Below are positions 25,600 to 46,427 of a stretch of 50,192 bases of DNA, piece after piece (the first letter of the stretch is position 1; each line of letters starts with the position of its first letter). Below the pieces are notes generated by a model. That model saw nothing but the letters and a program-made list of their open reading frames with translations, was not told the origin of the DNA and ran no database searches. Source of the DNA: a phage. The translations under genes and the position numbers were made by a program. Where the stretch lies: the sequence record PZ445416.1, one strand, 5' to 3'.

Positions 25600-25620
25600 A
25601 ATATAAACTCCTTAAATAAA

Positions 25621-29741: not shown

Positions 29742-30455
29742 ATGAAAGACTTTAATGATATTGAAACCATCGACTTTGCAGAAACTGGTTGCTCATTCAC
29801 TCGCGAAGCAATAGCATCAGGCGGTTATTATCAGGCATTGAAAACGCCAACCTGCAAAGAGATTTCAGGGCGTCGATACAAGGGAACAAATACCCCTGAC
29901 GCTGTTCGTGATTTATGGTCAACTCCGCGCGAGGTTATTGCATACCTTGAGGGGCGATACGGAAAATATGATCTCGACGCTGCGGCAAGCGAAGAAAATA
30001 AAGTTTGCGATAAGTTCTACTCTCAGGAAACAAACTGCTTAAAACGTTGGTGGGGTAAGAATAAGCACGTTTGGTTAAACCCCCCTTATAGCAGACCCGA
30101 TATATTCGTCAAGAAGGCTATTGAGCAAATGGAGCACAATAACCAGATCGATATACTGTTACCCGCCGATAACTCTACGGCGTGGTTTACTGAAGCTCGA
30201 CAGAACGCAGCTGAAATAATCTGGATTGAAGCGGACTTGACTGAGGATATTGACGGCAATGAATACGCGCGATCCGGTCGCCTGGCTTTCATATCCGGTG
30301 AAACTGGAAAGGCCGTAGACGGTAATAACAAAGGTTCGGTAATTTTTATTATGCGCGAACTTAAAGAAGGTGAGGTGCAACAGACTCACTACATCCCAAT
30401 CACAAGCATTTGCCCTTCGGTGAAAAACAAACGAGCAAAGGTGAGGAAAGTATGA
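29742..30455 (+). CDS. dam: DNA N6-adenine methyltransferase (phage Dam-like)
   Basis: Catalytic NPPY motif (WLNPPYS) and upstream acidic SAM-binding region; 237 aa. Confidence 0.75.
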   Translation: MKDFNDIETIDFAETGCSFTREAIASGGYYQALKTPTCKEISGRRYKGTNTPDAVRDLWSTPREVIAYLEGRYGKYDLDAAASEENKVCDKFYSQETNCLKRWWGKNKHVWLNPPYSRPDIFVKKAIEQMEHNNQIDILLPADNSTAWFTEARQNAAEIIWIEADLTEDIDGNEYARSGRLAFISGETGKAVDGNNKGSVIFIMRELKEGEVQQTHYIPITSICPSVKNKRAKVRKV

Positions 30456-33753: not shown

Positions 33754-34154
33754 TGAAACTGAAGAAAACGTGCATTGCGATTGCAGTGGCTTTTGGTGTT
33801 ATTTCCCTATCCGGTTGCTCGACGGCATCTGCCCTGAGCGGTTTAATCGGATCTAAACCGGAAGTTACAGCACAAATCGGAGAGGAGAACACAAAGCAAT
33901 TAGCAGGAGTAACCGCAAAATCCGAAGATAAGCGAGATGTTAAAGTTGAGAAGTCCAATGTAGGAAAGATTGACTCTTCCTTGAAGAAGTCAATTGAAGT
34001 GTCAACCATTAAGGCTAACACGGTTAACGCTGAAAGCATCACAGTAACAAAACCGGAAAACTGGTACGATGCTATCGTTGGCTGGATTCTCGTTTTTATC
34101 GGTCTATTGCTGGTTTATTTTTCACTTCGTAAGGACGAAAAAAAGGAGGCGTAA
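33750..34154 (+). CDS. unimolecular spanin (lipoprotein with C-terminal transmembrane anchor)
   Basis: Lipobox LSGC after a signal peptide, plus C-terminal TM helix [13 protein letters not shown]; overlaps endolysin stop. Confidence 0.7.
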
Positions 34155-34168
34155 GCCTCCTTTCTTTT
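34138..34168. terminator. bidirectional terminator at lysis cassette end
   Basis: AAAAAAA, GGAGGCGTAAGCCTCC hairpin, TTTCTTTT; between convergent spanin and minus-strand early genes. Confidence 0.6.
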
Positions 34169-34382
34169 ATGCATCATCCCACATGTAACTTTCGTTCGTG
34201 AGTTTTGCGTATTCGCGAACTTCAATCTCACAGGTGTCTCCGTACATCTCAGCGACCTTCTTCTCGTTCGCTACCGCCGTTTCTTCATCCCATCCATCAG
34301 CCTTGCTGTAAATGGTAGGAATCTCACTGCTAGTGCCGTTAGAGTGGTTGTAAACGCGAACTACTAAAAATTTGTTAGCCAT
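34167..34382 (-). CDS. hypothetical protein
   Basis: Start moved to MANKF after AAGGAAAG; downstream of Box-A cassette 34420-34462. Confidence 0.5.
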   Translation of the reverse strand: MANKFLVVRVYNHSNGTSSEIPTIYSKADGWDEETAVANEKKVAEMYGDTCEIEVREYAKLTNESYMWDDA

Positions 34383-34419
34383 GATGCTTTCCTTCAGGTC
34401 GTTTCGTTTCGATGAAACA

Positions 34420-34462
34420 AATATACCCGATACGAGATCGGGTGTTTTAACAAAAAGTGCTA
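34420..34462 (-). promoter_or_regulatory. Box-A cassette (minus strand)
   Basis: Minus strand TAGCACTTTTTGTTA, 22 bp with IR CCCGAT/ATCGGG, TATATT, leader CATCGAAACGAAACGA. Confidence 0.6.
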
Positions 34463-34571
34463 TTTGTACCTTTTTACGTGAAGTAGCAACTCCCCCTCCT
34501 GGTCGCAAAGATTATGCTCGCTTTCGTTACTAGCCCTCATTGAAGTGAGTAACAGACTCAACAACCCTTGC

Positions 34572-34979
34572 TCAAATTCTTCTTTCGTAAGCTGGAGCCT
34601 TGCGCACAATTCGACGTTCTGATCTATCAATGTTTCTACGTTCGCCAAACAAATCTTCATCACTCATCTCTCCAATGTGCATCATTTCCCACGTATACCG
34701 ATTGTTGTAGCCATCAATACACATCAGCTTCATCATTACAGGGCGCTTAATCTTTCCCTTGCACCAGTAAAACCCATCCTTGCAATCAAGATAACCCTCA
34801 GTCACGCAGCGCGCGCAAAACTCCTTAGATAGCGCGCTTGTAAATTCACGGCGAGTCATTCCGGCGGCCTTAGCAAATCGCTCACTTTCCTTGTGGGCGT
34901 ATATAAATTTCGCTATGTGCTGTCGAGTGTATTTGTCGTAACCTTCGCAGAACCTGAACAGATCTAAAAGAAGAAGCAT
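34572..34979 (-). CDS. hypothetical Cys-rich protein
   Basis: 135 aa; Cys cluster CARCVTEGYLDCKDGFYWCKG; start lies 5 nt after the stop of the upstream P-loop gene. Confidence 0.5.
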   Translation of the reverse strand: MLLLLDLFRFCEGYDKYTRQHIAKFIYAHKESERFAKAAGMTRREFTSALSKEFCARCVTEGYLDCKDGFYWCKGKIKRPVMMKLMCIDGYNNRYTWEMMHIGEMSDEDLFGERRNIDRSERRIVRKAPAYERRI

Positions 34980-34983
34980 ATTA

Positions 34984-36552
34984 TTAACCCATCAGTCGAG
35001 GATTGATGAAAACAATATCATCAATCCGGCAAGTGTAGTTCATCTCTTCGAGCGTTATCAGCAGGCTGTCGATTCGCTCAGATACTTTCTGTTGACCGTT
35101 GAACGGCGTAACGTTACGGCACTTTGCAACAATGCTATGAATCGGAGCGCGCCCTTTATTCTTCTTTGCGATCTCAGTGATAACATCAATCAGCTTACGA
35201 GATTCAGCCTCATCACCAGCATACCCGGCGGCGCTTGCGGACGACAGATAAGTCCTGGAAAGCTCATTGAAAATCATAATCGCTTCCTGCATTGTCTCAA
35301 GATCAATCTCACGATTAGATCGGTTCGGTGATTCACCCTCCCAATTCTTGATCGTGTGAAGAACTGAAGCAATGCGCAAGGCGTGCTTATCGAACTTACC
35401 GAGATGACCGCGTAGCATTGAGTGAGAGTATTTGCCCCCGGCGGCGAAATCAGGCTCCATCGCCTGGCGAGCAAGGTTTAATTCACGCATAGCGTTACGG
35501 CTTACAGAGAGAACAACGTTGTCTTCCTTCATGATGTTGTGAACGAGTCTGTAATATTTGCTAACCAGTCCGCGATCGACTTCTTTATACAATGCATCAC
35601 CATTTTCATCACAAAGAATACGAGTACCTAAAAGCGGTTCCTCGCGAACCAATAGGAAACGCTCAGATACACCGATACCGCGCTGGCCTGCGTCCATGAT
35701 ACCCTTGATTGTTTCATCCTGCGCAATGACGCAGATCGAACCGACCGGGCAAAGAGATAAGTTGTTGTCTTGGTTTGAACGCGCGACCTCCATATGGTTT
35801 TTATCCCACGCCTTAAGGATAAGTTCGCTGTTTGATTTCTTATCAGAGCCGCCATAAGTCAGGCCGAGCAATGTGTTGATTGCTGTCGCCTCATCAGAGA
35901 TTACTGAGAAGTGACCTTGAACAGCCGCCACCTTCGCAAGACCTTCAGGTGTAGGATCTGATACAGCGAAAACAATATCAGCCATCTTCTTGATCTTTTC
36001 TTCCAGTTTTTCCTTGTCCTCGTATAGCGCTGCCGTCGTGTTACCCTTCGGGTCGTTTTTAATTTCCTTCTCGACCTGACGTAGCTGACTGGTTAAACGG
36101 ATACGTTCCTTTTTTCGCTCTTCATTCAGTCGCTGAATCTCTGCGCGCATAGGCGTAATCGCTGCGGAGTTAATCGCAGATTTACCTGTTGACGGTGGCT
36201 GGCTGATTACCATGTAAAGAGCGGTTGGTTGTTCTTCTCCGTGATATTGCACCCAAAACTTCCCGAGCATCGCGGCTGATATGCACCCAATGAAATGAGC
36301 GTACGCAGACGAAACAGGGAACTGTACAGACTCGGCCTTTGCTTTTGCATATTCGAATACCAGGTTATCGCCACCTAACGAAATCAGAGGGAACTTATCG
36401 TTGCCGCTATTGATATCGATCGGATCTTGCCAAAATGAAACTGAGTCACCATAGCTGTTTTCACGAATTGCTATCGCCACCGGATTAACTCCAGTGCTAT
36501 TGGCGATCTCAATAATCTGTTGGTAATTCAGTTTTGGCTTAATATTAAACAT
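34984..36552 (-). CDS. P-loop NTPase of unknown function
   Basis: Start moved to MFNIK after AAGGAG; Walker A-like QPPSTGKSA, then long coiled-coil and helical regions; no further family assignment possible. Confidence 0.6.
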   Translation of the reverse strand: MFNIKPKLNYQQIIEIANSTGVNPVAIAIRENSYGDSVSFWQDPIDINSGNDKFPLISLGGDNLVFEYAKAKAESVQFPVSSAYAHFIGCISAAMLGKFWVQYHGEEQPTALYMVISQPPSTGKSAINSAAITPMRAEIQRLNEERKKERIRLTSQLRQVEKEIKNDPKGNTTAALYEDKEKLEEKIKKMADIVFAVSDPTPEGLAKVAAVQGHFSVISDEATAINTLLGLTYGGSDKKSNSELILKAWDKNHMEVARSNQDNNLSLCPVGSICVIAQDETIKGIMDAGQRGIGVSERFLLVREEPLLGTRILCDENGDALYKEVDRGLVSKYYRLVHNIMKEDNVVLSVSRNAMRELNLARQAMEPDFAAGGKYSHSMLRGHLGKFDKHALRIASVLHTIKNWEGESPNRSNREIDLETMQEAIMIFNELSRTYLSSASAAGYAGDEAESRKLIDVITEIAKKNKGRAPIHSIVAKCRNVTPFNGQQKVSERIDSLLITLEEMNYTCRIDDIVFINPRLMG

Positions 36553-36581
36553 CACAATAAACTCCTTAGTTGACGGTGTAA

Positions 36582-36624
36582 ATGATACACCGCCAATGGT
36601 ACACGCGTTTTGCAAAAAGTGCTA
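36582..36624 (-). promoter_or_regulatory. Box-A cassette (minus strand) upstream of P-loop gene
   Basis: Minus strand TAGCACTTTTTGCAA, 22 bp, TATCAT, IR GGTGTA/TACACC. Confidence 0.55.
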
Positions 36625-36628
36625 TTGG

Positions 36629-37045
36629 TTATAAGTATTTGGCCTCAAAGGTTGTGCCGTCTGCGATACTAAAACCAACCTCTTCGCGAAATAAGGTCCA
36701 GCGACAACCATCTTCATCAAAGATGTAACCAGCTACGCCACCGAGAGCGCGACCGCTTTCAACCTGGTAACGCTTGCCAACTTTGAATGATTTTTTCATT
36801 GGGTTGCGATGGTCAAGCCCGGTGCACTTGAGCGTCTTTGTTTTCAACTCAGTGAACTTCGCGAAGAAGATTTCATCAGATCCGTGAATCTGTAATTCAT
36901 CATGCTTTTCAAGTTTTAAATACTTCCCGCATTTTAATTTTACTTCGCGAGTGCCATCATAGCGCTCACGACCTTTGTATAGGTTGTTTACTTCAAATCC
37001 TGTGATTTTATCTGCGTGAGTGCATTTCAGTTTGATGGATTTCAT
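36629..37045 (-). CDS. hypothetical protein
   Basis: 138 aa, RBS CAGGAG, downstream of Box-A cassette 37082-37124. Confidence 0.5.
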   Translation of the reverse strand: MKSIKLKCTHADKITGFEVNNLYKGRERYDGTREVKLKCGKYLKLEKHDELQIHGSDEIFFAKFTELKTKTLKCTGLDHRNPMKKSFKVGKRYQVESGRALGGVAGYIFDEDGCRWTLFREEVGFSIADGTTFEAKYL

Positions 37046-37081
37046 TTCGTTAACTCCTGATTGGTTATCTTGAATAAGGTC

Positions 37082-37124
37082 ACTTTATCAAATGACCTTA
37101 CGGCAATATTAACAAATCGTGCTA
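37082..37124 (-). promoter_or_regulatory. Box-A cassette (minus strand)
   Basis: Minus strand TAGCACGATTTGTTA, 22 bp, TAAAGT enclosed by IR AAGGTCA/TGACCTT, leader CCAATCAGGAG. Confidence 0.55.
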
Positions 37125-37125
37125 T

Positions 37126-37335
37126 TTACCAGGGAATATAATCGTCGTCGTCCTCATCAATATCATCGCCAGGTAACTCGAAGTTTGGATTATATTCGCT
37201 TTCTGCGTCCATATCCATATTCCCTAGAGCGTCCTCAAGTGTGATTTCTTTATATGCAACCTTGATACACCATTCCGCACTAAGCCCGGCATCAAGAGCG
37301 GCAAAATAACGAGTCCAGAAATTATCCCGTTCCAT
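37126..37335 (-). CDS. small acidic protein
   Basis: ATG at 37335 (track start is a TTG one codon upstream); C-terminus LPGDDIDEDDDDYIPW is strongly acidic. Confidence 0.5.
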   Translation of the reverse strand: MERDNFWTRYFAALDAGLSAEWCIKVAYKEITLEDALGNMDMDAESEYNPNFELPGDDIDEDDDDYIPW

Positions 37336-37338
37336 CAA

Positions 37339-37563
37339 TTAACTCCATGAATTAATGTAAATTGAGTTAGCCTCAAGCGTAGCGCGCACATCAGCATCTG
37401 TTGCATTTACTAAGCGCGAGCCTGGCGTGCTGCCGATAACGTTATTACCGTTACGAGTCTTAGTTACCGTCATTGAAATAAAACCGGAAGACTTATCCAT
37501 TTTGATAACTACACGGCCTTTCGCGTTCAGGTGCTTGATGATATTCTCAACTTTAATGCTCAT
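37339..37563 (-). CDS. hypothetical protein
   Basis: 74 aa, RBS AAAGGA, downstream of Box-A cassette 37596-37639. Confidence 0.5.
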   Translation of the reverse strand: MSIKVENIIKHLNAKGRVVIKMDKSSGFISMTVTKTRNGNNVIGSTPGSRLVNATDADVRATLEANSIYINSWS

Positions 37564-37595
37564 TTTTAATTCCTTTGTTTGTTTGGTGTGGGAGT

Positions 37596-37639
37596 AATAT
37601 ACCTTACTCCCTGCTGATTGTCTTTAGCTATTCGTGCTA
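37596..37639 (-). promoter_or_regulatory. Box-A cassette (minus strand, variant box)
   Basis: Minus strand TAGCACGAATAGCTA, 23 bp, TATATT, IR GGGAGTAA/TTACTCCC. Confidence 0.5.
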
Positions 37640-37779
37640 TCAGTACTCAGAAATTACTTTGCACTCTTTGATTGTGCCGCCTAGAACTACTTTCTGCATC
37701 ATTGCCTTTTGGTGGCTATCGTAAACGCGAACATTTTTTACGCTGTTAAATTTGCCAGTATAGAAAGTGTGAATATAAA

Positions 37780-38100
37780 TCATTTTTTACCGTCCCAAGT
37801 TTGATACGCCGTCACCAGGTTGATGCTATGATCTAACTCATCAATGCTTAGCGATCCGATTCGAACCAATTCTTTTTCATGCTTGATATCAATCATCCTG
37901 CCATATGGATGACCTGGAACGTATTTGAACAGTCGCTTGCTGTCGGCAATGTCGGCATTGATCCCGTAGAATCTACCTACCGCCGCCTTCACGCGCTCCA
38001 TGATATTTTTTTCGTGAATTGCCGCCGCGTTATTCAGTGCCGCAACCGTGCTTCCGTTAATCTTCGGTGACTTCGTTGTGATTTTGTAAGTGTGGTTCAT
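37780..38100 (-). CDS. hypothetical protein
   Basis: 106 aa, in an operon-like arrangement with the two upstream genes. Confidence 0.5.
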   Translation of the reverse strand: MNHTYKITTKSPKINGSTVAALNNAAAIHEKNIMERVKAAVGRFYGINADIADSKRLFKYVPGHPYGRMIDIKHEKELVRIGSLSIDELDHSINLVTAYQTWDGKK

Positions 38101-38117
38101 TACTCCCCCTTAACCAG

Positions 38118-38318
38118 TCAGGATAGCTTTCGCGCTTCATCAATGATAACAGGTTCGAGGCGCTCAAGTCGAACGCGGAACGTGTTCATAAATCCCTCGT
38201 TGTTCTTCAATAATTCGAAGGCATCCGTAGCTTCAATTGCGCTATTTCCCATGTAGGCAACTACTCTCTTTTTCGTCTTGCGTGAGATCGCAACCACGCG
38301 GTAGATATTATCACTCAT
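38118..38318 (-). CDS. hypothetical protein
   Basis: Start at MSDNIY; ATGAGTGA overlap with the upstream stop. Confidence 0.45.
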   Translation of the reverse strand: MSDNIYRVVAISRKTKKRVVAYMGNSAIEATDAFELLKNNEGFMNTFRVRLERLEPVIIDEARKLS

Positions 38319-38682
38319 ACAATGCCTCCTTAACACGATCCGCAATGCAGGAGTTTACAGTGATTGAGTAGTTAGCCACGCCCCATAATGCAATATTGCC
38401 AAGCTCGGTACGCATTGATGGATTGTTAAGCTGGATTATTGTCTCTCCAGTATCATTATCAATAAAGCGAGACACGCCTAAATGGTCCACAGCGCGGGTT
38501 ACTCGGTTCACGCACTCCATTGCATCACTTACGCCGTAATAAGCGCTTAGAGCGGCTCTCACTCCATTCTCTTGCTTGTTGTAAATCTTGCGCGCAATGT
38601 TCTCGATCGCTACATTCTCTTTCTCGTCAGTCTGGATTGCTGTGCTTGCTGAGAAGTCTAGGTCTACGAATTGTTTAAACAT
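38311..38682 (-). CDS. hypothetical protein
   Basis: Start moved to MFKQF, at the canonical distance from Box-A cassette 38714-38756 with leader ACGAGG. Confidence 0.5.
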   Translation of the reverse strand: MFKQFVDLDFSASTAIQTDEKENVAIENIARKIYNKQENGVRAALSAYYGVSDAMECVNRVTRAVDHLGVSRFIDNDTGETIIQLNNPSMRTELGNIALWGVANYSITVNSCIADRVKEALYE

Positions 38683-38713
38683 GGTGATTACCTCGTTTTC
38701 TGTTGATGGGATG

Positions 38714-38756
38714 ACTATACCAGCCATCCTTGATGCGCGTTTAGCAATTTGTGCTA
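38714..38756 (-). promoter_or_regulatory. Box-A cassette (minus strand)
   Basis: Minus strand TAGCACAAATTGCTA, 22 bp, TGgTATAGT, IR GGATG/CATCC. Confidence 0.6.
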
Positions 38757-39092
38757 TTAAGCAATATCGAACTCAGCGGCGTACGCTTCTTTGAAGCCAG
38801 CTTCACGCATGGTGCGCTTACTGATTTTGCGCGGGAATTTGTACTGGCTGTTAGGCATCACCCACCAGAAGCAAGCTGTCTCGCGAACGATTTCATATTT
38901 ACCGTAACGAGTGAAGGTGTCGCGCTCCATGTCAGGCTGGTTAACACAGGTCAGGAATTTAACTTCCTTGTCTTCAGTTTTGATTTCTTCCCAAACGAAG
39001 GAGTCCATTCCGTTAACCTTGCAAGCAACCATGATGTACTCAAAGCCGTTTTCGATTTTGATGATTTCGTTACCGCGATTTTCGTATTTCAT
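38757..39092 (-). CDS. hypothetical protein
   Basis: 111 aa, RBS CAGGAG, downstream of Box-A cassette 39131-39173. Confidence 0.5.
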   Translation of the reverse strand: MKYENRGNEIIKIENGFEYIMVACKVNGMDSFVWEEIKTEDKEVKFLTCVNQPDMERDTFTRYGKYEIVRETACFWWVMPNSQYKFPRKISKRTMREAGFKEAYAAEFDIA

Positions 39093-39130
39093 TTTCTTGC
39101 TCCTGATGTGTATCTCGTTTCGATGAGGTA

Positions 39131-39173
39131 ATTATGCCAAATCACACCGATCGAGTTTTAACAAAAAGTGCTA
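39131..39173 (-). promoter_or_regulatory. Box-A cassette (minus strand)
   Basis: Minus strand TAGCACTTTTTGTTA (stop of the methyltransferase-like gene inside box), 22 bp, CATAAT, leader CCTCATCGAAACGAGA. Confidence 0.6.
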
Positions 39174-39862
39174 TCCGCGATCGCTTTAAAAAATCCCCTG
39201 GGTGATAGGGATCGTATCAACTTAGTTTTGGCAGATTTGCCGCCTAGCTTGCTGTGCTGCGCAGAGTACCCGTCAGGCAGGCTTACAGGTTTTCTTTCAG
39301 GCATGACAAAATCGTCAGAGGTCCACAGACAAGTTTTCTTCGGGTAAGCATCGCGCGGCGCAATATACATAGGGAACCAGGGATGCGCGTCATTCTCAGG
39401 AAGATAGCCGCCATACTCCCAGGGATTGAAGGAGTGATTTGGTTTTCTCCACACAGACGACAGGACGCTAACCGGATTCTCAATGATGTAAGTCACACCC
39501 AGGCTATCGCCAATGTTCGCGGCAATCCTTGCGGTGGCAACGGCCTTTTCCTGGAATAACGGATCGCGTTCACGCTTTCTTGCGAAGTGGGCGGCACCGC
39601 TAACAGCCAGGTCGGTACACGGAGGGAAAGCCATAATGAAATCCGGCTTGCCATACACACCAGCGATAGCATCACGCTCAAACGCTGCGTCAATGAACAC
39701 GTTCACATACTCAATGTTCGGATGCTCCACCCGGGCATTGTACTTTGCATAATCCCCGTGATCGGCTCCGTCAAAGTTGAAGCACATCACCTTGTGACCT
39801 TGCTTAGCCAGTTCATGACCAGCAAGACCGGAACCGTCGAATAGCGACCAGATTAATTTCAT
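39158..39862 (-). CDS. C5-cytosine methyltransferase-like protein
   Basis: Start moved to MKLIW after AGGAG; motif order FDGSG (I), FPPCTDLAVSG (IV, Thr in place of the usual Gln), IIENP (VI); short at 234 aa. Confidence 0.55.
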   Translation of the reverse strand: MKLIWSLFDGSGLAGHELAKQGHKVMCFNFDGADHGDYAKYNARVEHPNIEYVNVFIDAAFERDAIAGVYGKPDFIMAFPPCTDLAVSGAAHFARKRERDPLFQEKAVATARIAANIGDSLGVTYIIENPVSVLSSVWRKPNHSFNPWEYGGYLPENDAHPWFPMYIAPRDAYPKKTCLWTSDDFVMPERKPVSLPDGYSAQHSKLGGKSAKTKLIRSLSPRGFFKAIADSTFC

Positions 39863-39895
39863 TGCAAATCTCCTACTGATTGGTTGATGTGATGA

Positions 39896-39939
39896 ATCAT
39901 ACACTGCCAGCCTGACCAAGTCGTTAGCAAAAAATGCTA
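39896..39939 (-). promoter_or_regulatory. Box-A cassette (minus strand) upstream of C5-methyltransferase-like gene
   Basis: Minus strand perfect palindrome TAGCATTTTTTGCTA, 23 bp, TATGAT, leader CCAATCAGTAGGAG. Confidence 0.6.
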
Positions 39940-40020
39940 TTCCAATAGTTGCTCATTATTCCACCAGTAATGGAATATCTGGAATAATTGCGATCCCGAT
40001 TGATCTCGAATGATGAAATG

Positions 40021-40090
40021 TGATTGTTGCATGATGTGCAACTGTTGATGTGATTGTTGCTTGGAATGCAATGATTGTGAGAGGGAGGAT
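40021..40090. repeat. iteron-like direct repeats and short palindromes
   Basis: 13-mer ATGTGATTGTTGC at 40028 and 40058 (30-bp register), plus palindromes TTGCATGATGTGCAA and TTGC-N6-TGCAA. Confidence 0.55.
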
Positions 40091-40129
40091 TTAGTGTTAC
40101 CCGGTTCGCCTGGTGGTCATCTCCATTTT

Positions 40130-40144
40130 TAGCAAAACGTACTA
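40130..40144 (-). promoter_or_regulatory. isolated Box-A-like site within AT-rich hub
   Basis: Plus strand TAGCAAAACGTACTA (minus strand TAGTACGTTTTGCTA); no hexamer at the cassette position. Confidence 0.4.
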
Positions 40145-40230
40145 TCGATTACACTTTAACTTGTCACGATTGTAATATTTGTCTAGAATCGCACTTGTGA
40201 CAAAATTACGCACTGTGACGCATAACAATA

Positions 40231-40300
40231 GACATATAGATATATGTATATATATAATATATATAGTGTTTTTTTTATTTATATATATAGATAATCATAT
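40231..40300. repeat. TA-rich tract with element TATATAATATATATAG (second copy)
   Basis: TATATGTATATATATAATATATATAG...ATATATATAGATAAT inside the 630-bp non-coding hub between the divergent early clusters. Confidence 0.7.
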
Positions 40301-40548
40301 TGTAATAGTTGTGTATAGCTGTCTTACATTGTCTAGCGTACTGTTGGCATATTTCTATCTGCATGTTTATATATACAGTACTTTTTTGAGAGCTATATAT
40401 TTCTATGGTTACTCTAGACAGCTAGACAAATGTTACACGGCTTAAAATTGACTCGCAGGCATTGACAGCTCTACATCACGTTGTCACAATGGCAATTGTT
40501 GACACATTATGACGCCATTTACACACAAATAGACAAAGAGGATATATT

Positions 40549-41064
40549 ATGAGCAATACCAATCAGGAATTAAAAATCACCGATATGATTCGCCTAACCT
40601 GTGATGCAATGTACCGCGACAAAGGCATGACCGAGTTCTCTTTCGTGGCTGATGATATGGCCCTAGAAGCAGCGCGATTCTACTTCCGTGGCCAGGAGGT
40701 AAGCGATGCCGATCTTGAATCTGCCGCTGCCGGATGGGTGGACCAGAACCAGGGGGAGGTAGAGAAGCGATTCAAATCTGCTTTCATCACTCCAATCATT
40801 ACCCGACACTTTTGCAAGTATGGCAAGGTGGCAAAGGTGAAGGTAGGCCGGAATGACGCGGCAATCACGATGATAACCGTTATCGTTACAGACGAAGAGG
40901 TTCCAGTGAAGAAACGCCGTAGCCGGAAAAAAGTTAGCCTGGCCGACTGCCTGGACTCGTTTGATGTTGATGTTAGCAAGCTATCAGATAGCGAGTTAAT
41001 GGTTCGTGATGTGAATGAGATCGTGCGCCAGATGAAAGCGCATATTGAAAAGTGTGGACTGTAA
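40549..41064 (+). CDS. hypothetical protein (first gene of rightward early cluster)
   Basis: 171 aa, RBS AAAGAGGA, directly downstream of the AT-rich hub. Confidence 0.5.
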   Translation: MSNTNQELKITDMIRLTCDAMYRDKGMTEFSFVADDMALEAARFYFRGQEVSDADLESAAAGWVDQNQGEVEKRFKSAFITPIITRHFCKYGKVAKVKVGRNDAAITMITVIVTDEEVPVKKRRSRKKVSLADCLDSFDVDVSKLSDSELMVRDVNEIVRQMKAHIEKCGL

Positions 41065-41070
41065 GGAGAG

Positions 41071-41316
41071 ATGAGTATGAGCAAGATTAAGCATGACGCC
41101 CTGAAAGGTATCTTGATGCGACTAAACCCAGGCGAAGCATTCCAGCTTAACCCCGAGACGTTTGGATTCAATGGTGATTATCGTACAACCTTCGAATTTG
41201 TAAGGTATGTAAAGAAAGAGTTTGGATTCGAAGTTATTCACGCAGGTCTTATCAATGGCATCCAGACATTCATCTTTAAGCCAAATGAGATTCGTTGCTT
41301 CACGATGATGAAATAG
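41071..41316 (+). CDS. hypothetical protein
   Basis: 81 aa, RBS AAGGAGAG; its stop TAG is the first triplet of Box A at 41314. Confidence 0.5.
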   Translation: MSMSKIKHDALKGILMRLNPGEAFQLNPETFGFNGDYRTTFEFVRYVKKEFGFEVIHAGLINGIQTFIFKPNEIRCFTMMK

Positions 41317-41356
41317 CACTTTTTGTTAAAGCCCGGTCGAGCGGATCGGGTATTAT
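41314..41356 (+). promoter_or_regulatory. Box-A cassette
   Basis: TAGCACTTTTTGTTA, 22 bp, TATTAT, leader CATCGACACGATACAGAGGA. Confidence 0.6.
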
Positions 41357-41388
41357 CTTCTCATCGACACGATACAGAGGAATCGAAG

Positions 41389-41583
41389 ATGGAAATGCAA
41401 ATTGATGTGGTTGTTGTTCAGCGCGACTCAACTCATGAAAAGGGTCTGTTCAAGAAAGGAACCGAAATCACGATCGACCTTGAGGATATGGTTGCATATC
41501 ACTCGGGCCTTACCTGGAACGTGGTGCGCGTAGGCAGCGACTACAAACTCAAAGGCTTTAACACTTACTTTGCGGAGGTTTAA
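41389..41583 (+). CDS. hypothetical protein
   Basis: Start moved to MEMQID after CAGAGGAA, at canonical cassette distance. Confidence 0.5.
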   Translation: MEMQIDVVVVQRDSTHEKGLFKKGTEITIDLEDMVAYHSGLTWNVVRVGSDYKLKGFNTYFAEV

Positions 41584-41585
41584 TC

Positions 41586-42056
41586 ATGGCGACAATTACC
41601 GTATTCCTGGCTAAAGATGAGATTGATGGCGAAATGTCATTCTTCGCGTTTGAGCACAAGACCGGATCGCACTGGCACATGTACAGTCACTACACGGTTA
41701 TTGATATCAACTCATACGCTTGCGATTCGCTAAATGAAAAACTTGGTCGATTCATTGAGCATGTTAAATTAAGAGATGGTGGCGAGTGGAATGATAAGCA
41801 TGAAGGTCGACGCATGTGTGACATGATTGATCCTGTTTATCTGGAGTCGTTCGAGCTTGATGCTGATGTTGCCATTAAGGTGAGAAAGTCGGGTGAATTG
41901 TTGCCAGGGATGCGTGTGCTGACTGGTTACTCGGGCCGTAAGGTGTGGCGCACTGTATCCAAGATTCGCCAGCGTTCGGCAACATGCTATAGCGTATTCT
42001 TTGATGATGGTTGGAATATGATTTCCGGCAGTGAGGTAAAGTATCTCACCAAATAG
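41586..42056 (+). CDS. hypothetical protein
   Basis: 156 aa; stop TAG is the first triplet of Box A at 42054. Confidence 0.5.
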   Translation: MATITVFLAKDEIDGEMSFFAFEHKTGSHWHMYSHYTVIDINSYACDSLNEKLGRFIEHVKLRDGGEWNDKHEGRRMCDMIDPVYLESFELDADVAIKVRKSGELLPGMRVLTGYSGRKVWRTVSKIRQRSATCYSVFFDDGWNMISGSEVKYLTK

Positions 42057-42096
42057 CACGAATTGTTAAAACCGGATCGGGGTATCTTGCTATAGT
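42054..42096 (+). promoter_or_regulatory. Box-A cassette
   Basis: TAGCACGAATTGTTA, 22 bp with IR GGGGTA/TACCCC, TGcTATAGT. Confidence 0.6.
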
Positions 42097-42134
42097 TACC
42101 CCATCAAAACGAGATACCAATCAGAGGATTCACC

Positions 42135-42365
42135 ATGTCAATCGTCAAGAACCAACAAGCCATCGACTCAACCAGCCACAACCGCTTTGCTATTTTCATC
42201 ACATCTATAGGTCGCCGATTTGCAGTTAAGGCCGCGCCTGGTGGATACAAAACATACATGGAGGATAACGGGAAATGGGTGTGGTGCGAAAACCTAGCCA
42301 ACTTCCTGGTATGGAACGCAGACCTGCAAGGATTCGATGATATCAGCACTTTAATTGAGGAGTAA
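42135..42365 (+). CDS. hypothetical protein
   Basis: 76 aa, leader CCAATCAGAGGA. Confidence 0.5.
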   Translation: MSIVKNQQAIDSTSHNRFAIFITSIGRRFAVKAAPGGYKTYMEDNGKWVWCENLANFLVWNADLQGFDDISTLIEE

Positions 42366-42371
42366 ATAATA

Positions 42372-42599
42372 ATGCCACGTTACAGTAACCTAACCAAACT
42401 AGTCCGCGTCAACGGGCATATGATCCCGGCTAAATCTACTCACTGCGCGAAAGGCGCAAAGCACGGATTATATTTCAAGTGGCGCGGTCAATGGAACTTC
42501 ACGGCGGTGAGCAATTTTTACATGCGAGTTCCAGGTGATGACCCGCAATCGGTAGTAGAAAACTCAATAGGTGACAACAAGATCGAGGTGCTAAAATGA
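42372..42599 (+). CDS. hypothetical protein
   Basis: 75 aa, basic and Cys/His-containing. Confidence 0.45.
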   Translation: MPRYSNLTKLVRVNGHMIPAKSTHCAKGAKHGLYFKWRGQWNFTAVSNFYMRVPGDDPQSVVENSIGDNKIEVLK

Positions 42600-42706
42600 A
42601 CTTCAATACAATAGCTCTATGGTCTGCCGTCTGGTTCTTCTGCATGGGTCACGTTATGGTCGGCATCGTGGTAATGCTTCTCCTGTGCGCGGGGGCGTTC
42701 GAATGA
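42596..42706 (+). CDS. putative small membrane peptide (36 aa)
   Basis: ATGA overlap with upstream stop; almost entirely hydrophobic (ALWSAVWFFCMGHVMVGIVVMLLL); absent from the supplied track. Confidence 0.35.
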   Translation: MNFNTIALWSAVWFFCMGHVMVGIVVMLLLCAGAFE

Positions 42707-42876
42707 TGCGAATATTGATTTGCATGATGGCGGCTGTCGCCCTGGCTATCCTGGTAGTGTCCGGCTGCGGCGAGGTCAAAGAGCGATGCCATGAAACCGG
42801 GAGCCAGGCTACTACTTTCGTGATGGTTGGCAACGTTTTGCTACCAATCACATCAAATGAAATCACTTGCGAATAG
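42703..42876 (+). CDS. putative small lipoprotein (57 aa)
   Basis: Start MMRIL overlaps the previous stop; signal peptide with lipobox-like VVSGC. Confidence 0.4.
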   Translation: MMRILICMMAAVALAILVVSGCGEVKERCHETGSQATTFVMVGNVLLPITSNEITCE

Positions 42877-42884
42877 AGGTTAAT

Positions 42885-43076
42885 ATGGCTGACTTTATGC
42901 ACCAAATGATTGCAGTATTCAAAGGTAGCGAAGATGAGGAAGTAAAAGAGTGCTTTACTGTCGACAAGCCTTATAACGCTTCTCTGACCAGCTTCGGTAA
43001 CATCTCATTGCTTGATGATAATGGCGACCCCTGGGTATTCGATGAAGATACGGATTGCTTCGAAATTAAAGAATAG
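42885..43076 (+). CDS. hypothetical acidic protein
   Basis: Start at MADFMHQ after AGAGG; stop TAG is the first triplet of Box A at 43074. Confidence 0.5.
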   Translation: MADFMHQMIAVFKGSEDEEVKECFTVDKPYNASLTSFGNISLLDDNGDPWVFDEDTDCFEIKE

Positions 43077-43116
43077 CACTTTTTGTTAAAACGCGATCAT
43101 ATGGTTGCGATATAGT
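43074..43116 (+). promoter_or_regulatory. Box-A cassette
   Basis: TAGCACTTTTTGTTA, 22 bp, TATAGT, leader CACATCAACAACGAATGAGGA. Confidence 0.6.
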
Positions 43117-43147
43117 AACCACATCAACAACGAATGAGGACGAGAAC

Positions 43148-43636
43148 ATGAAAATTAAATTACTGTGCACTGGAGGTTACAAAGGCTTTACTCGCAACCT
43201 GGAGTCAGACCCGATTATCGTTGACGCTGTGAAGTGTGATGATAGCACGGGCGGCTACCGTGTTAAGGTTGACGATCTGGTAAAAGCTGGCGTGTACGAT
43301 CTGGATTATGGACTTTCGGTTAGCCCGGTAGTCGGTCCGGCAGACTTCAATGAGAAAAACGGAACGATGTTCTTCTTCGAGTGGGAAGTCCAGGCAAATC
43401 CTAAGCCGCGCAAGGTTCGACTTCTCAATAGTGGCGGATACCCGATGCGCTCGGGGTATGAGAACCGCACGTTCCCGGTTATCGTTGATTTTGAAGAAAT
43501 CACTAGCAACCTGGCATACGTTAACGATGAGCAGTTGCGAGCGGTTGGATTTGTCGGCGGTATGAATAAAGAGGCGCTCTGCTTCTTCCATCGAGATCCA
43601 GAACCGTTCGATATTGAGTGCGAGTTAGTTTACTAA
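43148..43636 (+). CDS. hypothetical protein
   Basis: 162 aa; stop TAA overlaps Box A at 43635. Confidence 0.5.
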   Translation: MKIKLLCTGGYKGFTRNLESDPIIVDAVKCDDSTGGYRVKVDDLVKAGVYDLDYGLSVSPVVGPADFNEKNGTMFFFEWEVQANPKPRKVRLLNSGGYPMRSGYENRTFPVIVDFEEITSNLAYVNDEQLRAVGFVGGMNKEALCFFHRDPEPFDIECELVY

Positions 43637-43677
43637 GCACGAATTGTTAAAAGGGGATTTGTCCTGACTGGTATAAT
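43635..43677 (+). promoter_or_regulatory. Box-A cassette
   Basis: AAGCACGAATTGTTA, 22 bp with IR GGGGATT/AATCCCC, TGgTATAAT. Confidence 0.6.
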
Positions 43678-43707
43678 CCCCACATCAACCACTAAGAGGA
43701 AAGCATC

Positions 43708-44214
43708 ATGTTAAAATTAGAATACGTAAAATTCCCGATTAAATTTATCAGCCTGGGTTGCGGTGAAATTACACTCACCAGTGAAGATAAAGGCAAGTGG
43801 GCCACTGATGAGGTGTCTCAGCTTAAGTTGGATTGGTTTATCAATCGGCACAATGAAGTAAATCCTGAAAACTCAGCCAAGAAGGATTACCATTACATTA
43901 TTAGTGGTAGTCAGGATGCGTACGGAAAGTATGATGGTTGGAAAACTGATCGATCCATCTTCCACCCCGCAAAGCCAGAAATTAAACCGATGTTACAATG
44001 CACTCAGATCGAGAACATGCCATTGAGCGCTACGCTAAAGGGCGTCCAACTTGATAGCGAATCCTGGACCGAGATTACCGCCACACCTAAAACTATTGAG
44101 GTGCATGATGATGTAGTGATTCTCCTATTGCATTACGGCAGCTTTAAGCACAAAACGGTATCAGGTGAAATAAGCATTAAGCGCGGAACACTTGTACGCT
44201 ATGAGGTGAAATAA
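43708..44214 (+). CDS. hypothetical protein
   Basis: 168 aa; RBS AAGAGGAAAG. Confidence 0.5.
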   Translation: MLKLEYVKFPIKFISLGCGEITLTSEDKGKWATDEVSQLKLDWFINRHNEVNPENSAKKDYHYIISGSQDAYGKYDGWKTDRSIFHPAKPEIKPMLQCTQIENMPLSATLKGVQLDSESWTEITATPKTIEVHDDVVILLLHYGSFKHKTVSGEISIKRGTLVRYEVK

Positions 44215-44363
44215 TGGCGGCGTGGATTTTGATTATCTTGATGAGTACCGGGCCGGATCACGTATACATGGAAAGTCAGCAATCATGCAACAAGGCTCGG
44301 GAAGTAATTGCAGAGAGCAAGCCGTTCGGATACGAAGTAAAAACGATGTGCGTTAAACGATAG
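44214..44363 (+). CDS. small hypothetical protein (49 aa)
   Basis: ATG overlaps upstream TAA; hydrophobic N-terminus (AAWILIILMS); stop TAG is the first triplet of Box A at 44361; absent from the track. Confidence 0.35.
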   Translation: MAAWILIILMSTGPDHVYMESQQSCNKAREVIAESKPFGYEVKTMCVKR

Positions 44364-44403
44364 CACGAATTGCTAAACCTTCCGCAAGGCCATTTGATAT
44401 AGT
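44361..44403 (+). promoter_or_regulatory. Box-A cassette
   Basis: TAGCACGAATTGCTA, 22 bp with IR AAGGCCA/TGGCCTT, TGaTATAGT. Confidence 0.6.
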
Positions 44404-44443
44404 GGCCTTATTGAAGCAAGGCAACCAATCAGAGGAATCAGCT

Positions 44444-44650
44444 ATGGCTACACGACTAACTCAGTGGCAGATTTACGACAAGGCCTCACACCTTCGTGAA
44501 TCGCTTCGCGGACTGGCACCGAACGACCGCATGGAGATTATCGGGCACGCATTGCACGAACTCACGTCTCAGGACGTAATCTATCACTCATGCGGCAATA
44601 AATTCTGGAACGTGACATTCGAGGTAAAGAAAGATGAGCAAAACTCATAA
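44444..44650 (+). CDS. hypothetical protein
   Basis: Start moved to MATRLTQ after CCAATCAGAGGA. Confidence 0.5.
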   Translation: MATRLTQWQIYDKASHLRESLRGLAPNDRMEIIGHALHELTSQDVIYHSCGNKFWNVTFEVKKDEQNS

Positions 44651-44921
44651 GTTAAAAATCTCCCCGGTACATTTCATTGGTGTAATGAACGGAACCAAAA
44701 CGGCAGAGTTCCGCGTCAATGACCGCAACTTCCAGGTTGGTGATATCCTTGAGCTACGCGAGTTCGATCGTGACGAGCTTACCGGGTGGGAAGTTCACGC
44801 CAGGGTGTCCGATGTTACAGATGTGACGCCATACATCAATCGCGGTTATGACGAGCAAGAATGCGACTTCACGCAGTACGTGATGTTATCAATCAAGCCC
44901 TACAGGAAGATTAGACCATGA
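44634..44921 (+). CDS. ASCH / DUF3850-like protein (PUA-like fold)
   Basis: HKLKISPVHFIGVMNGTKTAEFRVNDRNFQVGDILELRE resembles the DUF3850/ASCH signature as I remember it. Confidence 0.55.
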   Translation: MSKTHKLKISPVHFIGVMNGTKTAEFRVNDRNFQVGDILELREFDRDELTGWEVHARVSDVTDVTPYINRGYDEQECDFTQYVMLSIKPYRKIRP

Positions 44922-45556
44922 AATTTGAGTGTGTATCGAGTAGCGGATCTGGTTTTAAGTGGGGAAAAACTTACAAAGGTGTTCGCGTAAATGATGACAG
45001 CTTCATCATTACTGATGAGAACGGTTGCAACGTGAACGTTGTACGGCGTCACGAATATCAGGAAATTTTCCTGCCTTATGGCGGTAGCTCAAAATATATC
45101 TTCCATCGAATCGTGGATGGTGTTAAATTTAACGACGTAATCGAAGCAATCAACCAACTGCATAATAAAGAGGTAAAATTTATGAAATTCGAATGTATCA
45201 GCGATAACACCAAAAAATTTACTGTTGGAAAAATCTATGACGTTCCATCTGAGCACGCTAAGCACACGACTGTAATTACCGATGACACGGGCCATAACCG
45301 CATCGCAACGATCACTCACAATGGTGAGGGTCTTCGTTGGAACAGTGGCGGCACTAAGTTCGCAACTTTCGGTAAGAAGAGTAAGCGCACTTTCTGCGTC
45401 AACGACAAGATCAATACCAGCAAGATTAGCAACGTCAAGCCTATTAATGTTGACCGCAAGCCAGCGATGAAGTTTGAAGAGAAAGCGGATTTATCCATCC
45501 TGGCTGTGGCGCTTGTTCTCCTGGTGGCTTCGATTTCGCTGATGTTCATCATGTAA
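44918..45556 (+). CDS. membrane-anchored protein with internal tandem repeat
   Basis: Residues 1-90 and 91-180 both begin MKFEC(V/I)S... and share G(K)xYxxV; C-terminal TM helix ILAVALVLLVASISLMFIM. Confidence 0.55.
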   Translation: MKFECVSSSGSGFKWGKTYKGVRVNDDSFIITDENGCNVNVVRRHEYQEIFLPYGGSSKYIFHRIVDGVKFNDVIEAINQLHNKEVKFMKFECISDNTKKFTVGKIYDVPSEHAKHTTVITDDTGHNRIATITHNGEGLRWNSGGTKFATFGKKSKRTFCVNDKINTSKISNVKPINVDRKPAMKFEEKADLSILAVALVLLVASISLMFIM

Positions 45557-45609
45557 TTTCAATTGGGAATCGGCTCTGAACGGTTCCCCTTTCTTTTGGA
45601 GAAAACACT

Positions 45610-45720
45610 ATGCCAGACTTTTCTAACTGGAATAACGAGCCACCATCATTTCAGGATTTGCTATTCTGCCTCCTGGTCCTGACATTATCTCTTAAGGGTG
45701 TTTTATGGCTACTATCATGA
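45610..45720 (+). CDS. possible small hydrophobic peptide (36 aa)
   Basis: ORF MPDFSNWNNEPPSFQDLLFCLLVLTLSLKGVLWLLS with upstream GGAG; overlaps the start of 45705-45923 in another frame, so only one may be real. Confidence 0.25.
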   Translation: MPDFSNWNNEPPSFQDLLFCLLVLTLSLKGVLWLLS

Positions 45721-45923
45721 CAGCAGAAGATGCAGCGCGTGACGCAGTGGAAGGAATGCGCCCAAATACCTCCAGAATCGCACACTACTACAAATCTGAG
45801 GTGTCGGCAGTGCAATTGGTCCACGAAATTTTAATGCTACCACAAGTCGATTCAGCGCGCGTGGTGACGTGCTTAAAAAATTATTTTTGCATCACTATTA
45901 AAACGAATAGCACGAATTGCTAA
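45705..45923 (+). CDS. hypothetical protein
   Basis: 72 aa; stop TAA lies inside Box A at 45908-45922. Confidence 0.35.
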   Translation: MATIMTAEDAARDAVEGMRPNTSRIAHYYKSEVSAVQLVHEILMLPQVDSARVVTCLKNYFCITIKTNSTNC

Positions 45924-45950
45924 AACCTATCAAGGTGAATGCGCTATGAT
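45908..45950 (+). promoter_or_regulatory. Box-A cassette
   Basis: TAGCACGAATTGCTA, 22 bp, TATGAT. Confidence 0.6.
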
Positions 45951-45980
45951 TCCCCTACACCAACAAACGAGGAAACGATA

Positions 45981-46427
45981 ATGAAACACTTAATCTGCAT
46001 TGAAGCGCCTAACGATGAATACACTCTGCACGGCATTGGAATGTTCAAAGGTCACTACATGACAGCAAGTATTCATGATTCGCGTTGCGTCAATGGCGAT
46101 CTGATGATTACGTCAAAAGAAGTAAATCCGTACATTATGCAGAATCTTGGCAATAACGAATATATGGCCTATGGATGCAACGCAGTGTATAAGCACATTA
46201 AGATCCGCAAGCGCGTCGTGCGTGCATTCAAGAAGATTGCAATGAAGTACTGGAAGATGAGCAAGAAGGACGCCGGGCGCTGGGCGCGTAATGTTGCTGA
46301 CGCATACTTCTACCGTAACGGTGAGTCCTGCTACTTCCTGATCGATGAAATTATGGAAAACTACGGCGGCGACTTCAGCCAGTGCAGCTTTGACGATTGG
46401 GTTAATTATGAGATCAGTTGCTGGTAA
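45981..46427 (+). CDS. hypothetical protein
   Basis: Start moved to MKHLI after ACGAGGAAACG; Cys/Tyr/Trp-rich; stop followed immediately by Box A at 46428. Confidence 0.5.
   Translation: MKHLICIEAPNDEYTLHGIGMFKGHYMTASIHDSRCVNGDLMITSKEVNPYIMQNLGNNEYMAYGCNAVYKHIKIRKRVVRAFKKIAMKYWKMSKKDAGRWARNVADAYFYRNGESCYFLIDEIMENYGGDFSQCSFDDWVNYEISCW

Follow-up and report, generated by a model that had tools for sequence, protein, structure and literature searches.

Marbox-like promoter cassettes and modular gene units in the leftward non-structural arm of a T1-like phage

The published class II sites of the activators MarA, SoxS, Rob and RamA are found in the forward orientation at -41 or -41.5, where they overlap the position of the -35 element, and the promoters concerned have no recognisable -35. 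The marbox consensus, as defined by Grainger's group, reads 5'-GCANNWWNTGNNAAA-3' (PMC12052159), and a stricter version reads GCAHWWWWTGYYAAA (PMC6900184). Repeated promoter units are also described from the T4-type phages RB49 and phi1, where promoter-early stem-loop (PeSL) cassettes combine a promoter with a stem-loop that lies mostly between the -35 and -10 elements or over the -10. PeSLs act as terminators or attenuators, and also as joints for modular shuffling (PMC2839356). Here, both systems are compared with repeated promoter cassettes in sequence record PZ445416.1, a phage DNA of 50,192 nucleotides (this whole stretch is referred to as the window), and in particular with those of a leftward gene cluster at 34167-39862.

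The most notable result, judged from sequence, is that these cassettes carry consensus MarA/SoxS/Rob boxes in a class II configuration, for which no description was found in the literature searched. A cassette consists of an ATAGCACnwwTTGyTAAA box (19-20 bp, ATAGCACnwwTTGyTAAAa), 20 nt of spacer, a -10 hexamer and usually a hairpin, and the motif ATAGCACnnnTTGyTAAA precedes genes on both strands. The window contains 20 exact matches to GCANNWWNTGNNAAA, against 0.97 expected and a maximum of 4 in 200 Markov shuffles. If one mismatch is allowed and a -10-like hexamer is required 19-21 nt downstream, there are about 26 cassettes window-wide. Seven of these (P1 to P7, Table 1) are situated within the cluster and divide it into units of 1, 1, 4, 2, 1, 2 and 1 genes. 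The initial annotation had assigned a "Box-A cassette" to every one to three genes; the repeated cassette is real and occurs far above chance, although one unit is longer than stated, with four genes. The same annotation took the cassettes as a sign of strong early expression. This is not supported, since the approximately 26 copies across the genome represent a general promoter type that is specific neither to the cluster nor to early genes. Cassettes head almost all non-structural units, including those of the primase, the SF2 helicase, Dam and the lysis operon. Promoter density in the cluster (one per 0.8 kb) is the same as in the rightward arm and in the replication/lysis region.

A matrix built from 60 sites in six phages gives ATA-GCAC-k-w-w-T-T-G-y-T-AAA-a, followed by 20 unconserved nucleotides, the hexamer TAtaaT and C-1/A+1 seven nucleotides past the hexamer. 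G is present at -14 in 83% of the cassettes, and a full TG in about half. Conservation extends to positions outside the search pattern (the ATA prefix, C4, T8, Y11 and Y12), as the longer marbox consensus predicts, and variation in the box is confined to the positions at which the marbox is degenerate. The TTTT, TAAT and AAAT variants of the box also fit GCAHWWWWTGYYAAA. The half-sites of the box, CAC(k)-7 nt-AAA, are spaced as in micF and fit the published A-site GCAC and B-site CAAA (YAAA). All phage boxes are in the forward orientation at a fixed gap of 20 nt from the -10, which places the 15-mer at about -47 to -33 relative to the predicted start, with its centre at about -40. The best match to a -35 element at a spacing of 16-18 nt averages 2.4 out of 6, and the TTGyTA part of the box was rejected as an ordinary -35, being 22 nt from the -10. 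A standard sigma70 scan yielded 18 promoters against 13.7 expected; this lack of an excess follows from the fact that the cassettes have no usable -35. With start sites taken as predicted, the sequence, the orientation and position, and the combination of an absent -35 with a canonical -10 all correspond to class II.

The box, its spacing and the -10 are conserved in T1, in Rtp (which belongs to another subfamily), in SECphi27, and in a Tlsvirus, a Webervirus and a Kyungwonvirus, with completely different spacers. In a scan of viral contigs, multi-copy boxes were confined to contigs of approximately 46-53 kb that resemble T1 relatives. We conclude that the cassettes have the sequence features expected of general promoters of this phage family, with the full class II mar/sox/rob architecture. 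Given a consensus marbox in the class II position and no usable -35, host sigma70 RNA polymerase would be recruited by an activator of the MarA/SoxS/Rob type. Rob is the obvious candidate because it is constitutively abundant, and if Rob were the activator no phage protein would be needed. No MarA or SoxS homologue was detected in any frame of the window, and no two-helix-turn-helix (two-HTH) protein of the AraC type was found to be encoded by the phage. It is tentatively proposed, with slightly less than even confidence, that T1-family phages tie nearly all of their non-structural transcription to host MarA/SoxS/Rob through some 25 near-consensus class II marboxes per genome.

The hairpins of the cassettes also show signs of selection. 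Eighteen of 27 are more stable than their shuffles (z < -2). They are placed either in the spacer ahead of a T-rich -10, in a terminator-like arrangement (P7 and others), or with their arms flanking the -10. Most have no U-tract, and two cassettes of the cluster resemble intrinsic terminators. The orthologous helicase promoters of the window, SECphi27, the Tlsvirus and Rtp have a hairpin in the same place with unrelated stem sequences, which argues for selection on structure.

Cassettes also mark the places where related genomes differ. When the window was compared with EF3-1, SA12KD and T1, every insertion or deletion junction fell at a cassette. The 71-aa unit is missing from both T1 and EF3-1. 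EF3-1 has a 400-bp insertion between duplicated 63-bp P2 cassettes, and SA12KD a 360-bp insertion between duplicated 56-bp P3 cassettes. In T1, an HNH gene is inserted at P6 and everything between P3 and P1 is missing. The arm is a hyperplastic modular array of seven exchangeable mini-operons, and this is why every few genes have a cassette of their own. The cassette would accordingly be a recombination joint and an attenuator at once, and PeSL-like exchange from cassette to cassette would insert, delete and swap small gene units; the breakpoint pattern is observed, and the mechanism is what we infer from it. Irrespective of the marbox question, the way in which accessory genes are exchanged among T1-like phages can be seen from these insertions and deletions between cassettes.

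Several further sites resemble parts of a cassette. An exact marbox-type box at 49613-49627 (+), which has no -10 at the usual distance, precedes the start codon of the small-terminase gene by 16 nt. This box is conserved in both T1 and EF3-1, and may regulate the structural operon from its head. Two sites combine a box and a weak -10 with a terminator-like hairpin immediately downstream and no open reading frame (ORF): one at 9855-9905 (-), which is antisense within the block of structural genes and follows the major tail gene, and the other at 25620-25700 (+), between the tail-fibre and primase genes. Both may give rise to short non-coding or antisense transcripts. Two boxes overlap the final codons of an upstream gene: one at 39156-39174 (-) in the C-terminus of the methyltransferase-like protein (...ADSTFC*), and one at 26694-26712 (-) inside the C-terminus of a Cro-like regulator, where the cassette heads the primase gene. 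The embedded promoter box accounts for the C-terminus of the methyltransferase-like protein being unlike that in other genera. Among the 5' leaders (window 34413-47860), the first transcribed bases are conserved (C-A-T-C-G/A-A-A-A-C-G-A...), and several leaders share ACCAATCAGAGGA ahead of the start codon, which may be a common leader or a translation-initiation element.

The region 34167-39862 (5.7 kb) matches 188 phage records, the best being Shigella/Escherichia Tunavirus genomes of approximately 50 kb at 94-96% identity. It matches the ST1-ST10 arm of T1 (NC_005833) gene for gene, with three extra genes, and in terms of both the cluster and its modules it is almost certainly the leftward non-structural arm of a T1-like (Tunavirus) coliphage. 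The arm is also present in Rtp, SECphi27, a Tlsvirus, a Webervirus and a Kyungwonvirus, and its core across genera comprises the gp6-like gene, the methyltransferase gene (absent from T1), the gp7-like gene, the helicase gene and the gp10-like gene. The ORF list bears out a contiguous minus-strand cluster running leftward from 39862 to 34167. Together with the annotations of relatives, it gives 12 genes and not the eleven first counted, with products of 234, 111, 123, 66, 106, 47, 74, 69, 138, 522, 135 and 71 aa from 39862 downwards. For the 123-aa gene, the start is ATG 38682, preferred over 38727 because the latter ATG precedes the predicted transcription start; relatives annotate 372 nt. 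The guanine-cytosine (GC) skew is negative across 34-40 kb. The arm is flanked by the convergent lysis operon on one side and by a 600-bp non-coding divergent region on the other.

The cargo of the arm is mixed: a replication module, a methyltransferase-like enzyme, a member of the family that triggers the defence system Mokosh type I, a protein with an SSB-tail-like tip and seven family-restricted ORFans. The cluster had been described as lacking assignable functions apart from a C5-methyltransferase-like gene and a P-loop protein. This stands for most of the small proteins, which gave nothing significant against Pfam, NCBIfam, PADLOC or PDB sequences (NCBIfam returned zero matches, and PADLOC only weak, sub-significant ones), but more can be assigned than was stated. 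The seven ORFans are confined to the phage family and have no function assigned in PHROGs. Paralogy of the 123-aa and 106-aa proteins was considered and rejected (BLASTP E 0.3), and no credible Rfam family was found at 33.5-41.5 kb.

The largest gene of the arm encodes a helicase of the DUF3987 family. These are superfamily 6 (SF6), MCM-related phage helicases that have been proposed to be replicative (Kazlauskas et al. 2016). One member, AgaPH, is a 5'-3' helicase that requires both Walker A and Walker B, and members are often fused to a primase or encoded next to one, although this is not strictly a defining trait. The window protein scores 145.6 bits against PF13148 (gathering cut-off 27) over 355 of 364 model positions. 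The Walker A motif noticed at the outset is confirmed (G123 K124 S125) and is joined by a Walker B motif (D220 E221), both invariant in seven homologues from several genera. It is the best-conserved gene of the arm, with 55-60% identity between genera and approximately 100% identity to T1 gp9. Owing to the Pfam assignment, the biochemistry of the family and this conservation, the protein is assigned as a DUF3987 helicase, most likely with a housekeeping role in replication. The initial annotation had taken it no further than a P-loop protein, and had listed such a homology result among the outcomes that would count against its view of the cluster. The gene is neither fused nor adjacent to a primase gene; a Zn-ribbon primase is encoded at 25700-26635, 8 kb away, and an SF2 helicase is encoded elsewhere in the window. 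Sequence and profile searches of the PDB with the helicase gave nothing significant. Its residues 138-195 (35973-36141), conserved in seven of seven homologues, are the sole segment with weak PDB matches, which are to coiled-coil proteins.

The gene for the 135-aa partner begins 4 nt past the stop codon of the helicase gene, in agreement with the coupling of the two genes proposed earlier. The partner is a winged-helix protein, and its family is a narrow one (16 clusters). It had been called Cys-rich, but the family does not conserve its cysteines: C87 alone is invariant, C11 is almost so, and CxxC 55-58, C66 and C73 vary; zinc binding was rejected on these grounds. The two proteins are read as a replication module, in which the partner would act as a loader, an origin-binding protein or a regulatory factor.

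SECphi27 escapes Mokosh type I upon loss of a 128-aa protein, and expression of this protein is toxic in the presence of Mokosh type I (Stokar-Avihail et al., bioRxiv 10.1101/2022.08.27.505566). The gene sequence in the supplement and the position of the escape mutation (6995, a frameshift at codon 7) identify the trigger as SECphi27 gp13 (bioRxiv 10.1101/2022.08.27.505566), and the viability of the frameshift indicates that gp13 is dispensable. The 138-aa protein of the window shares 60% identity with gp13 over 75 aa (BLASTP E 9e-31). By analogy with SECphi27, its family, which has 26 representatives, is taken to be dispensable and sensed by Mokosh type I. A point against extending this to the window protein is that the homology is limited to the C-terminal domain, the N-terminal halves being unrelated. 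Sequence and profile searches of the PDB with the family gave nothing significant.

The 69-aa protein ends in DDDDYIPW, and the YIPW ending is found in 60 of 61 cluster representatives. The gp6-like family to which it belongs occurs in 453 phage records, and in other genera the C-termini are IPFW, FPF or MPF, following either an acidic segment or a CxC...CxxC knuckle that takes the place of the acidic stretch. An acidic stretch followed by hydrophobic-Pro-aromatic-COOH, as in DDDIPF, is therefore present in the 69-aa protein; "SSB-tip mimic" is a working name and not an established family. The phage's own SSB-like protein, encoded at 23162-23587 (+), ends in FDDDIPF and has no Pfam match at E <= 0.001. 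The E. coli SSB tip is the same (DDDIPF). As a hypothesis, the 69-aa protein probably docks onto a protein that binds SSB tails. In four other genera (Table 1), the gp6-like gene is directly upstream of a short gene for a C5-methyltransferase-like protein, which suggests that the two form a functional pair that has become separated in Tunavirus. Several records mis-annotate the small gp6-like gene as "cytosine methylase". An apparent fusion of the two genes in Klebsiella phages was rejected, as the gp6-like part proved to be an ORF of its own (79 aa) that is read in a different frame, and a wrongly called methyltransferase start overlaps it.

The methyltransferase-like gene noticed at the outset, which is the first of the cluster, is borne out by C5-methyltransferase motifs. 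In a 25-sequence alignment, its product has the conserved motifs FDGSG, FPPC, ENPV and RSLTPRGF, with F8-D-G10-S11-G12, P80-P81-C82 and E128-N129-P130 invariant or nearly so, corresponding to motifs I, IV and VI. It matches phrog_757 "DNA methyltransferase" at 1.5e-83, and 4 of the 25 relatives match PF00145 (best 1.3e-6). An AlphaFold2 (AF2) model has a predicted local distance difference test (pLDDT) score of 85, and the top Foldseek matches in the PDB are the catalytic domains of DNMT3A/3B, DIM2 and the prophage CP-933R methyltransferase 3g7u (E 1e-5 to 1e-3, template-modelling (TM) scores 0.45-0.52). Two observations count against the assignment. The window protein itself has no Pfam match at E <= 0.1, remaining below the gathering score, and a recognisable motif X (GN(A/V)) is not visible in the alignment. 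Searches of the PDB with sequences and profiles likewise gave nothing significant. By its motifs and predicted fold, the protein is nevertheless classed as a compact C5-cytosine-methyltransferase-like enzyme, one of a family of approximately 5000 phage proteins of about 230 aa each. A recognition domain could be provided by the roughly 90 aa that separate ENP from RSLTPR. The role of the protein is probably self-methylation of phage DNA against restriction. A second methyltransferase gene in the window, at 29742-30455, belongs to the Dam family.

Within the divergent non-coding region at 39941-40548, the core (40229-40406) is AT-rich, the motifs TTGTCAC/GTGACAA and CTAGACA recur, and a direct repeat of 24 nt is present at 40018-40071. 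The region also contains a degenerate box at 40129-40145 (GTAC for GCAC), which in T1 and EF3-1 is perfect but has no -10. The T1 record and its annotated 2.8-kb terminal repeat begin in this region, and for this reason a pac site and/or an origin is probably located there.

Dependence on MarA, SoxS or Rob meets several difficulties. MarA and SoxS are scarce in unstressed cells, Rob is abundant but largely inactive without inducers, and T1 grows readily on laboratory K-12; we know of no host-factor screen that points to rob, marA or soxS. The position of the box relative to +1 follows from a predicted -10. Many cassettes could act as activator-free extended -10 promoters, given the frequencies of G-14 and TG. 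The older 19-20-mer marbox consensus ends in Y, whereas the last position of the phage box is mostly A, and only five sites fit the stricter 19-20-mer pattern. The literature searched held nothing linking marboxes or Rob/MarA/SoxS to T1-like phages or quoting the box; the T1 (2004) and Rtp (2006) genome papers fell outside this search, and may already have described the repeats as promoters. A further difficulty is that the GAAT variant of the box has a partial dyad, TAGCA-N5-TGCTA, so that a dimeric phage or host protein is a possible binder. The box would then be an operator or activator site of a phage protein, either the Cro-like regulator at 26696-27148 or one delivered with the virion, or else a direct contact of RNA polymerase, and its likeness to the marbox would be coincidental. 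An HTH regulator is indeed encoded (phrog_2856; P22_Cro 5.5e-5, below threshold), it has a single HTH and is the sole annotated regulator, and with G-14 so common the -10 region may suffice alone. However, the dyad is lost in the TTTT variant (TAGCA...TGTTA), which is just as common, and this argues for asymmetric recognition of the box. The first promoters cannot be switched on by a protein that is synthesised only after infection, and the box is nevertheless shared by all non-structural units. A chance match to a consensus of about 20 bits at the right orientation and distance is improbable, and no two-HTH AraC-type protein is encoded. Taken together, a phage protein or a polymerase contact is a rather unlikely explanation of the box.

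The initial annotation regarded the cluster as a site of host takeover and anti-defence, and the content of the arm supports part of this: it is hypervariable, with accessory genes and many small family-restricted ORFans, one of its families, a dispensable one, is sensed by Mokosh type I, the methyltransferase could protect against restriction, and the SSB-tail-like tip suggests targeting of a host protein. Yet the largest and best-conserved genes, the backbone of the arm, are the replication helicase module, none of the proteins gave a match to known families of anti-defence or defence, the cassettes show no specificity for early genes, and being sensed by a defence system is not the same as anti-defence activity. 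That the cluster is mainly a strongly expressed early takeover island is consequently doubtful. It might also be argued that the cassettes are only terminators or recombination scars, and that a single promoter in the divergent region serves the entire arm, since annotators of SA12KD labelled several of the hairpins as terminators and two cassettes are terminator-like or resemble terminators. This is very unlikely in view of the -10 at a fixed distance, the conserved C-1/A+1 and G-14 and the missing U-tract in most hairpins; the analogous PeSLs are proven to be both promoters and terminators (PMC2839356), and no consensus promoter independent of the cassettes faces leftward just upstream of P1. 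The best overall explanation, in which arm identity, marbox-type promoters and shuffling cassettes are combined, is considered probable on the whole.

If the marbox proposal is true, a classic family of virulent coliphages reads the antibiotic and stress regulatory state of its host at its promoters, and phage expression would depend on, or be tuned by, regulators of multidrug tolerance and of the responses to bile, oxidative stress and salicylate. Phage susceptibility would then be linked to mar/sox/rob status, for example in mar-derepressed clinical isolates or upon exposure to bile and salicylate in the gut, with relevance to phage therapy and phage-antibiotic interactions. The cassettes would also be useful in studies of MarA, SoxS and Rob, as a compact and naturally occurring collection of strong class II promoters. 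Among the gene products, the candidates for experiments are the homologue of the Mokosh trigger, the SSB-tail-like protein, the short C5-methyltransferase family with its approximately 5000 members, and the helicase/winged-helix pair.

Table 1. Features of the leftward arm in the window, with gene pairs from other genera (positions of the pairs refer to the respective phage sequences).
Feature	Position	Strand	Remarks
Cassette P1	39889..39940	-	Box 39922-39940 (1 mismatch), -10 TATGAT 39896-39901, predicted start ~39889; heads methyltransferase-like gene
C5-cytosine-methyltransferase-like gene, compact, 234 aa	39158..39862	-	Motifs, phrog_757, predicted fold; not in T1
Cassette P2	39124..39174	-	Box 39156-39174 (in last codons of methyltransferase-like gene), -10 CATAAT 39131-39136, hairpin; heads 111-aa gene
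111-aa ORFan	38757..39092	-	phrog_29431; T1 without homologue
Cassette P3	38707..38757	-	Box 38739-38757, -10 TATAGT 38714-38719, hairpin around -10; heads four genes
123-aa ORFan, T1 gp1 homologue	38311..38682	-	phrog_11577; ORF list, PHROGs, T1 comparison
66-aa ORFan, T1 gp2 homologue	38118..38318	-	phrog_6503; ORF list, PHROGs, T1 comparison
106-aa ORFan, T1 gp3 homologue	37780..38100	-	phrog_10555; ORF list, PHROGs, T1 comparison
47-aa ORFan, T1 gp4 homologue	37640..37783	-	phrog_3955; ORF list, PHROGs, T1 comparison
Cassette P4	37589..37640	-	Box 37622-37640 (1 mismatch), -10 TATATT 37596-37601, hairpin; heads 74- and 69-aa genes
74-aa ORFan, T1 gp5 homologue	37339..37563	-	phrog_4344; ORF list, PHROGs, T1 comparison
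69-aa protein, T1 gp6 homologue	37126..37335	-	Conserved N-terminal domain, acidic tail, SSB-tail-like C-terminal tip
Cassette P5	37075..37125	-	Box 37107-37125 (1 mismatch), -10 TAAAGT 37082-37087, hairpin; heads 138-aa gene
138-aa protein, T1 gp7 homologue	36629..37045	-	C-terminal domain homologous to 128-aa Mokosh type I trigger of SECphi27
Cassette P6	36575..36625	-	Box 36607-36625, -10 TATCAT 36582-36587, hairpin around -10 (other genera: different stems); heads helicase and partner genes
DUF3987 (SF6/MCM-related) helicase, T1 gp9 homologue, 522 aa	34984..36552	-	PF13148 3e-42; phrog_2373 "DNA helicase" 8e-234
135-aa protein, T1 gp10 homologue, winged-helix domain	34572..34979	-	Always encoded just downstream of helicase
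Cassette P7	34413..34463	-	Box 34445-34463, terminator-like hairpin in spacer, -10 TATATT 34420-34425; heads 71-aa gene
71-aa ORFan	34167..34382	-	phrog_27210; cassette-bounded insertion; not in T1 or EF3-1
Terminator-like hairpin, bidirectional	34142-34163	both	Closes cluster; common to convergent lysis operon; annotated terminator in T1 and SA12KD
gp6-like + methyltransferase pair, Webervirus	3483-4422
gp6-like + methyltransferase pair, Warwickvirus (SECphi27)	4001-4946
gp6-like + methyltransferase pair, Tlsvirus	4001-5119
gp6-like + methyltransferase pair, Kyungwonvirus	3974-5176

Compared with known systems, the arm is closest to that of T1, in which nine of genes 1-10 agree with the window in order, size and sequence. 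The window has in addition the methyltransferase-like gene, the 111-aa gene and the 71-aa gene, and is without the HNH endonuclease ST8. SECphi27 gp13 occupies the same gene position as the 138-aa gene, between the methyltransferase/gp6 genes and the helicase gene. In other genera, the methyltransferase gene adjoins the gp6-like gene, whereas in the window it heads the arm. The helicase falls into the same Pfam family as AgaPH and the phage SF6 helicases and agrees with them in Walker A and Walker B, and differs from its DUF3987 relatives in having no PriCT domain and no fused primase, and in the family-specific winged-helix gene downstream. With the C5 methyltransferases (PF00145, DNMT3, 3g7u), the 234-aa protein shares motifs I (FxGxG), IV (PC) and VI (ENx), an IX-like RxLTPR and a Rossmann-type fold; unlike PF00145 enzymes, it has only 234 aa, no recognisable motif X or classical target-recognition domain and T for Q after the catalytic Cys.

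As in PeSLs, the cassettes are short repeated units of promoter and stem-loop that lie between small non-essential ORFans and bound insertions, deletions and replacements. This likeness rests on the repeated unit and the bounded junctions seen in the window, terminator activity and mini-circles being known for PeSLs. PeSLs have a consensus sigma70 -35 and an AT-rich upstream region, whereas the window cassettes have no -35 and a marbox-type element 5 bp further from the -10. In the latter respect, the cassettes resemble class II promoters such as micF, with which they share the box sequence, the half-site spacing, the forward orientation, a centre near -41, the absence of a -35 and a canonical -10. 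Promoters of the micF type belong to a stress regulon and the cassettes to a virulent phage, in which dependence on the activators is a proposal. Host marboxes are degenerate and occur once per promoter, whereas the phage has approximately 26 near-consensus copies.

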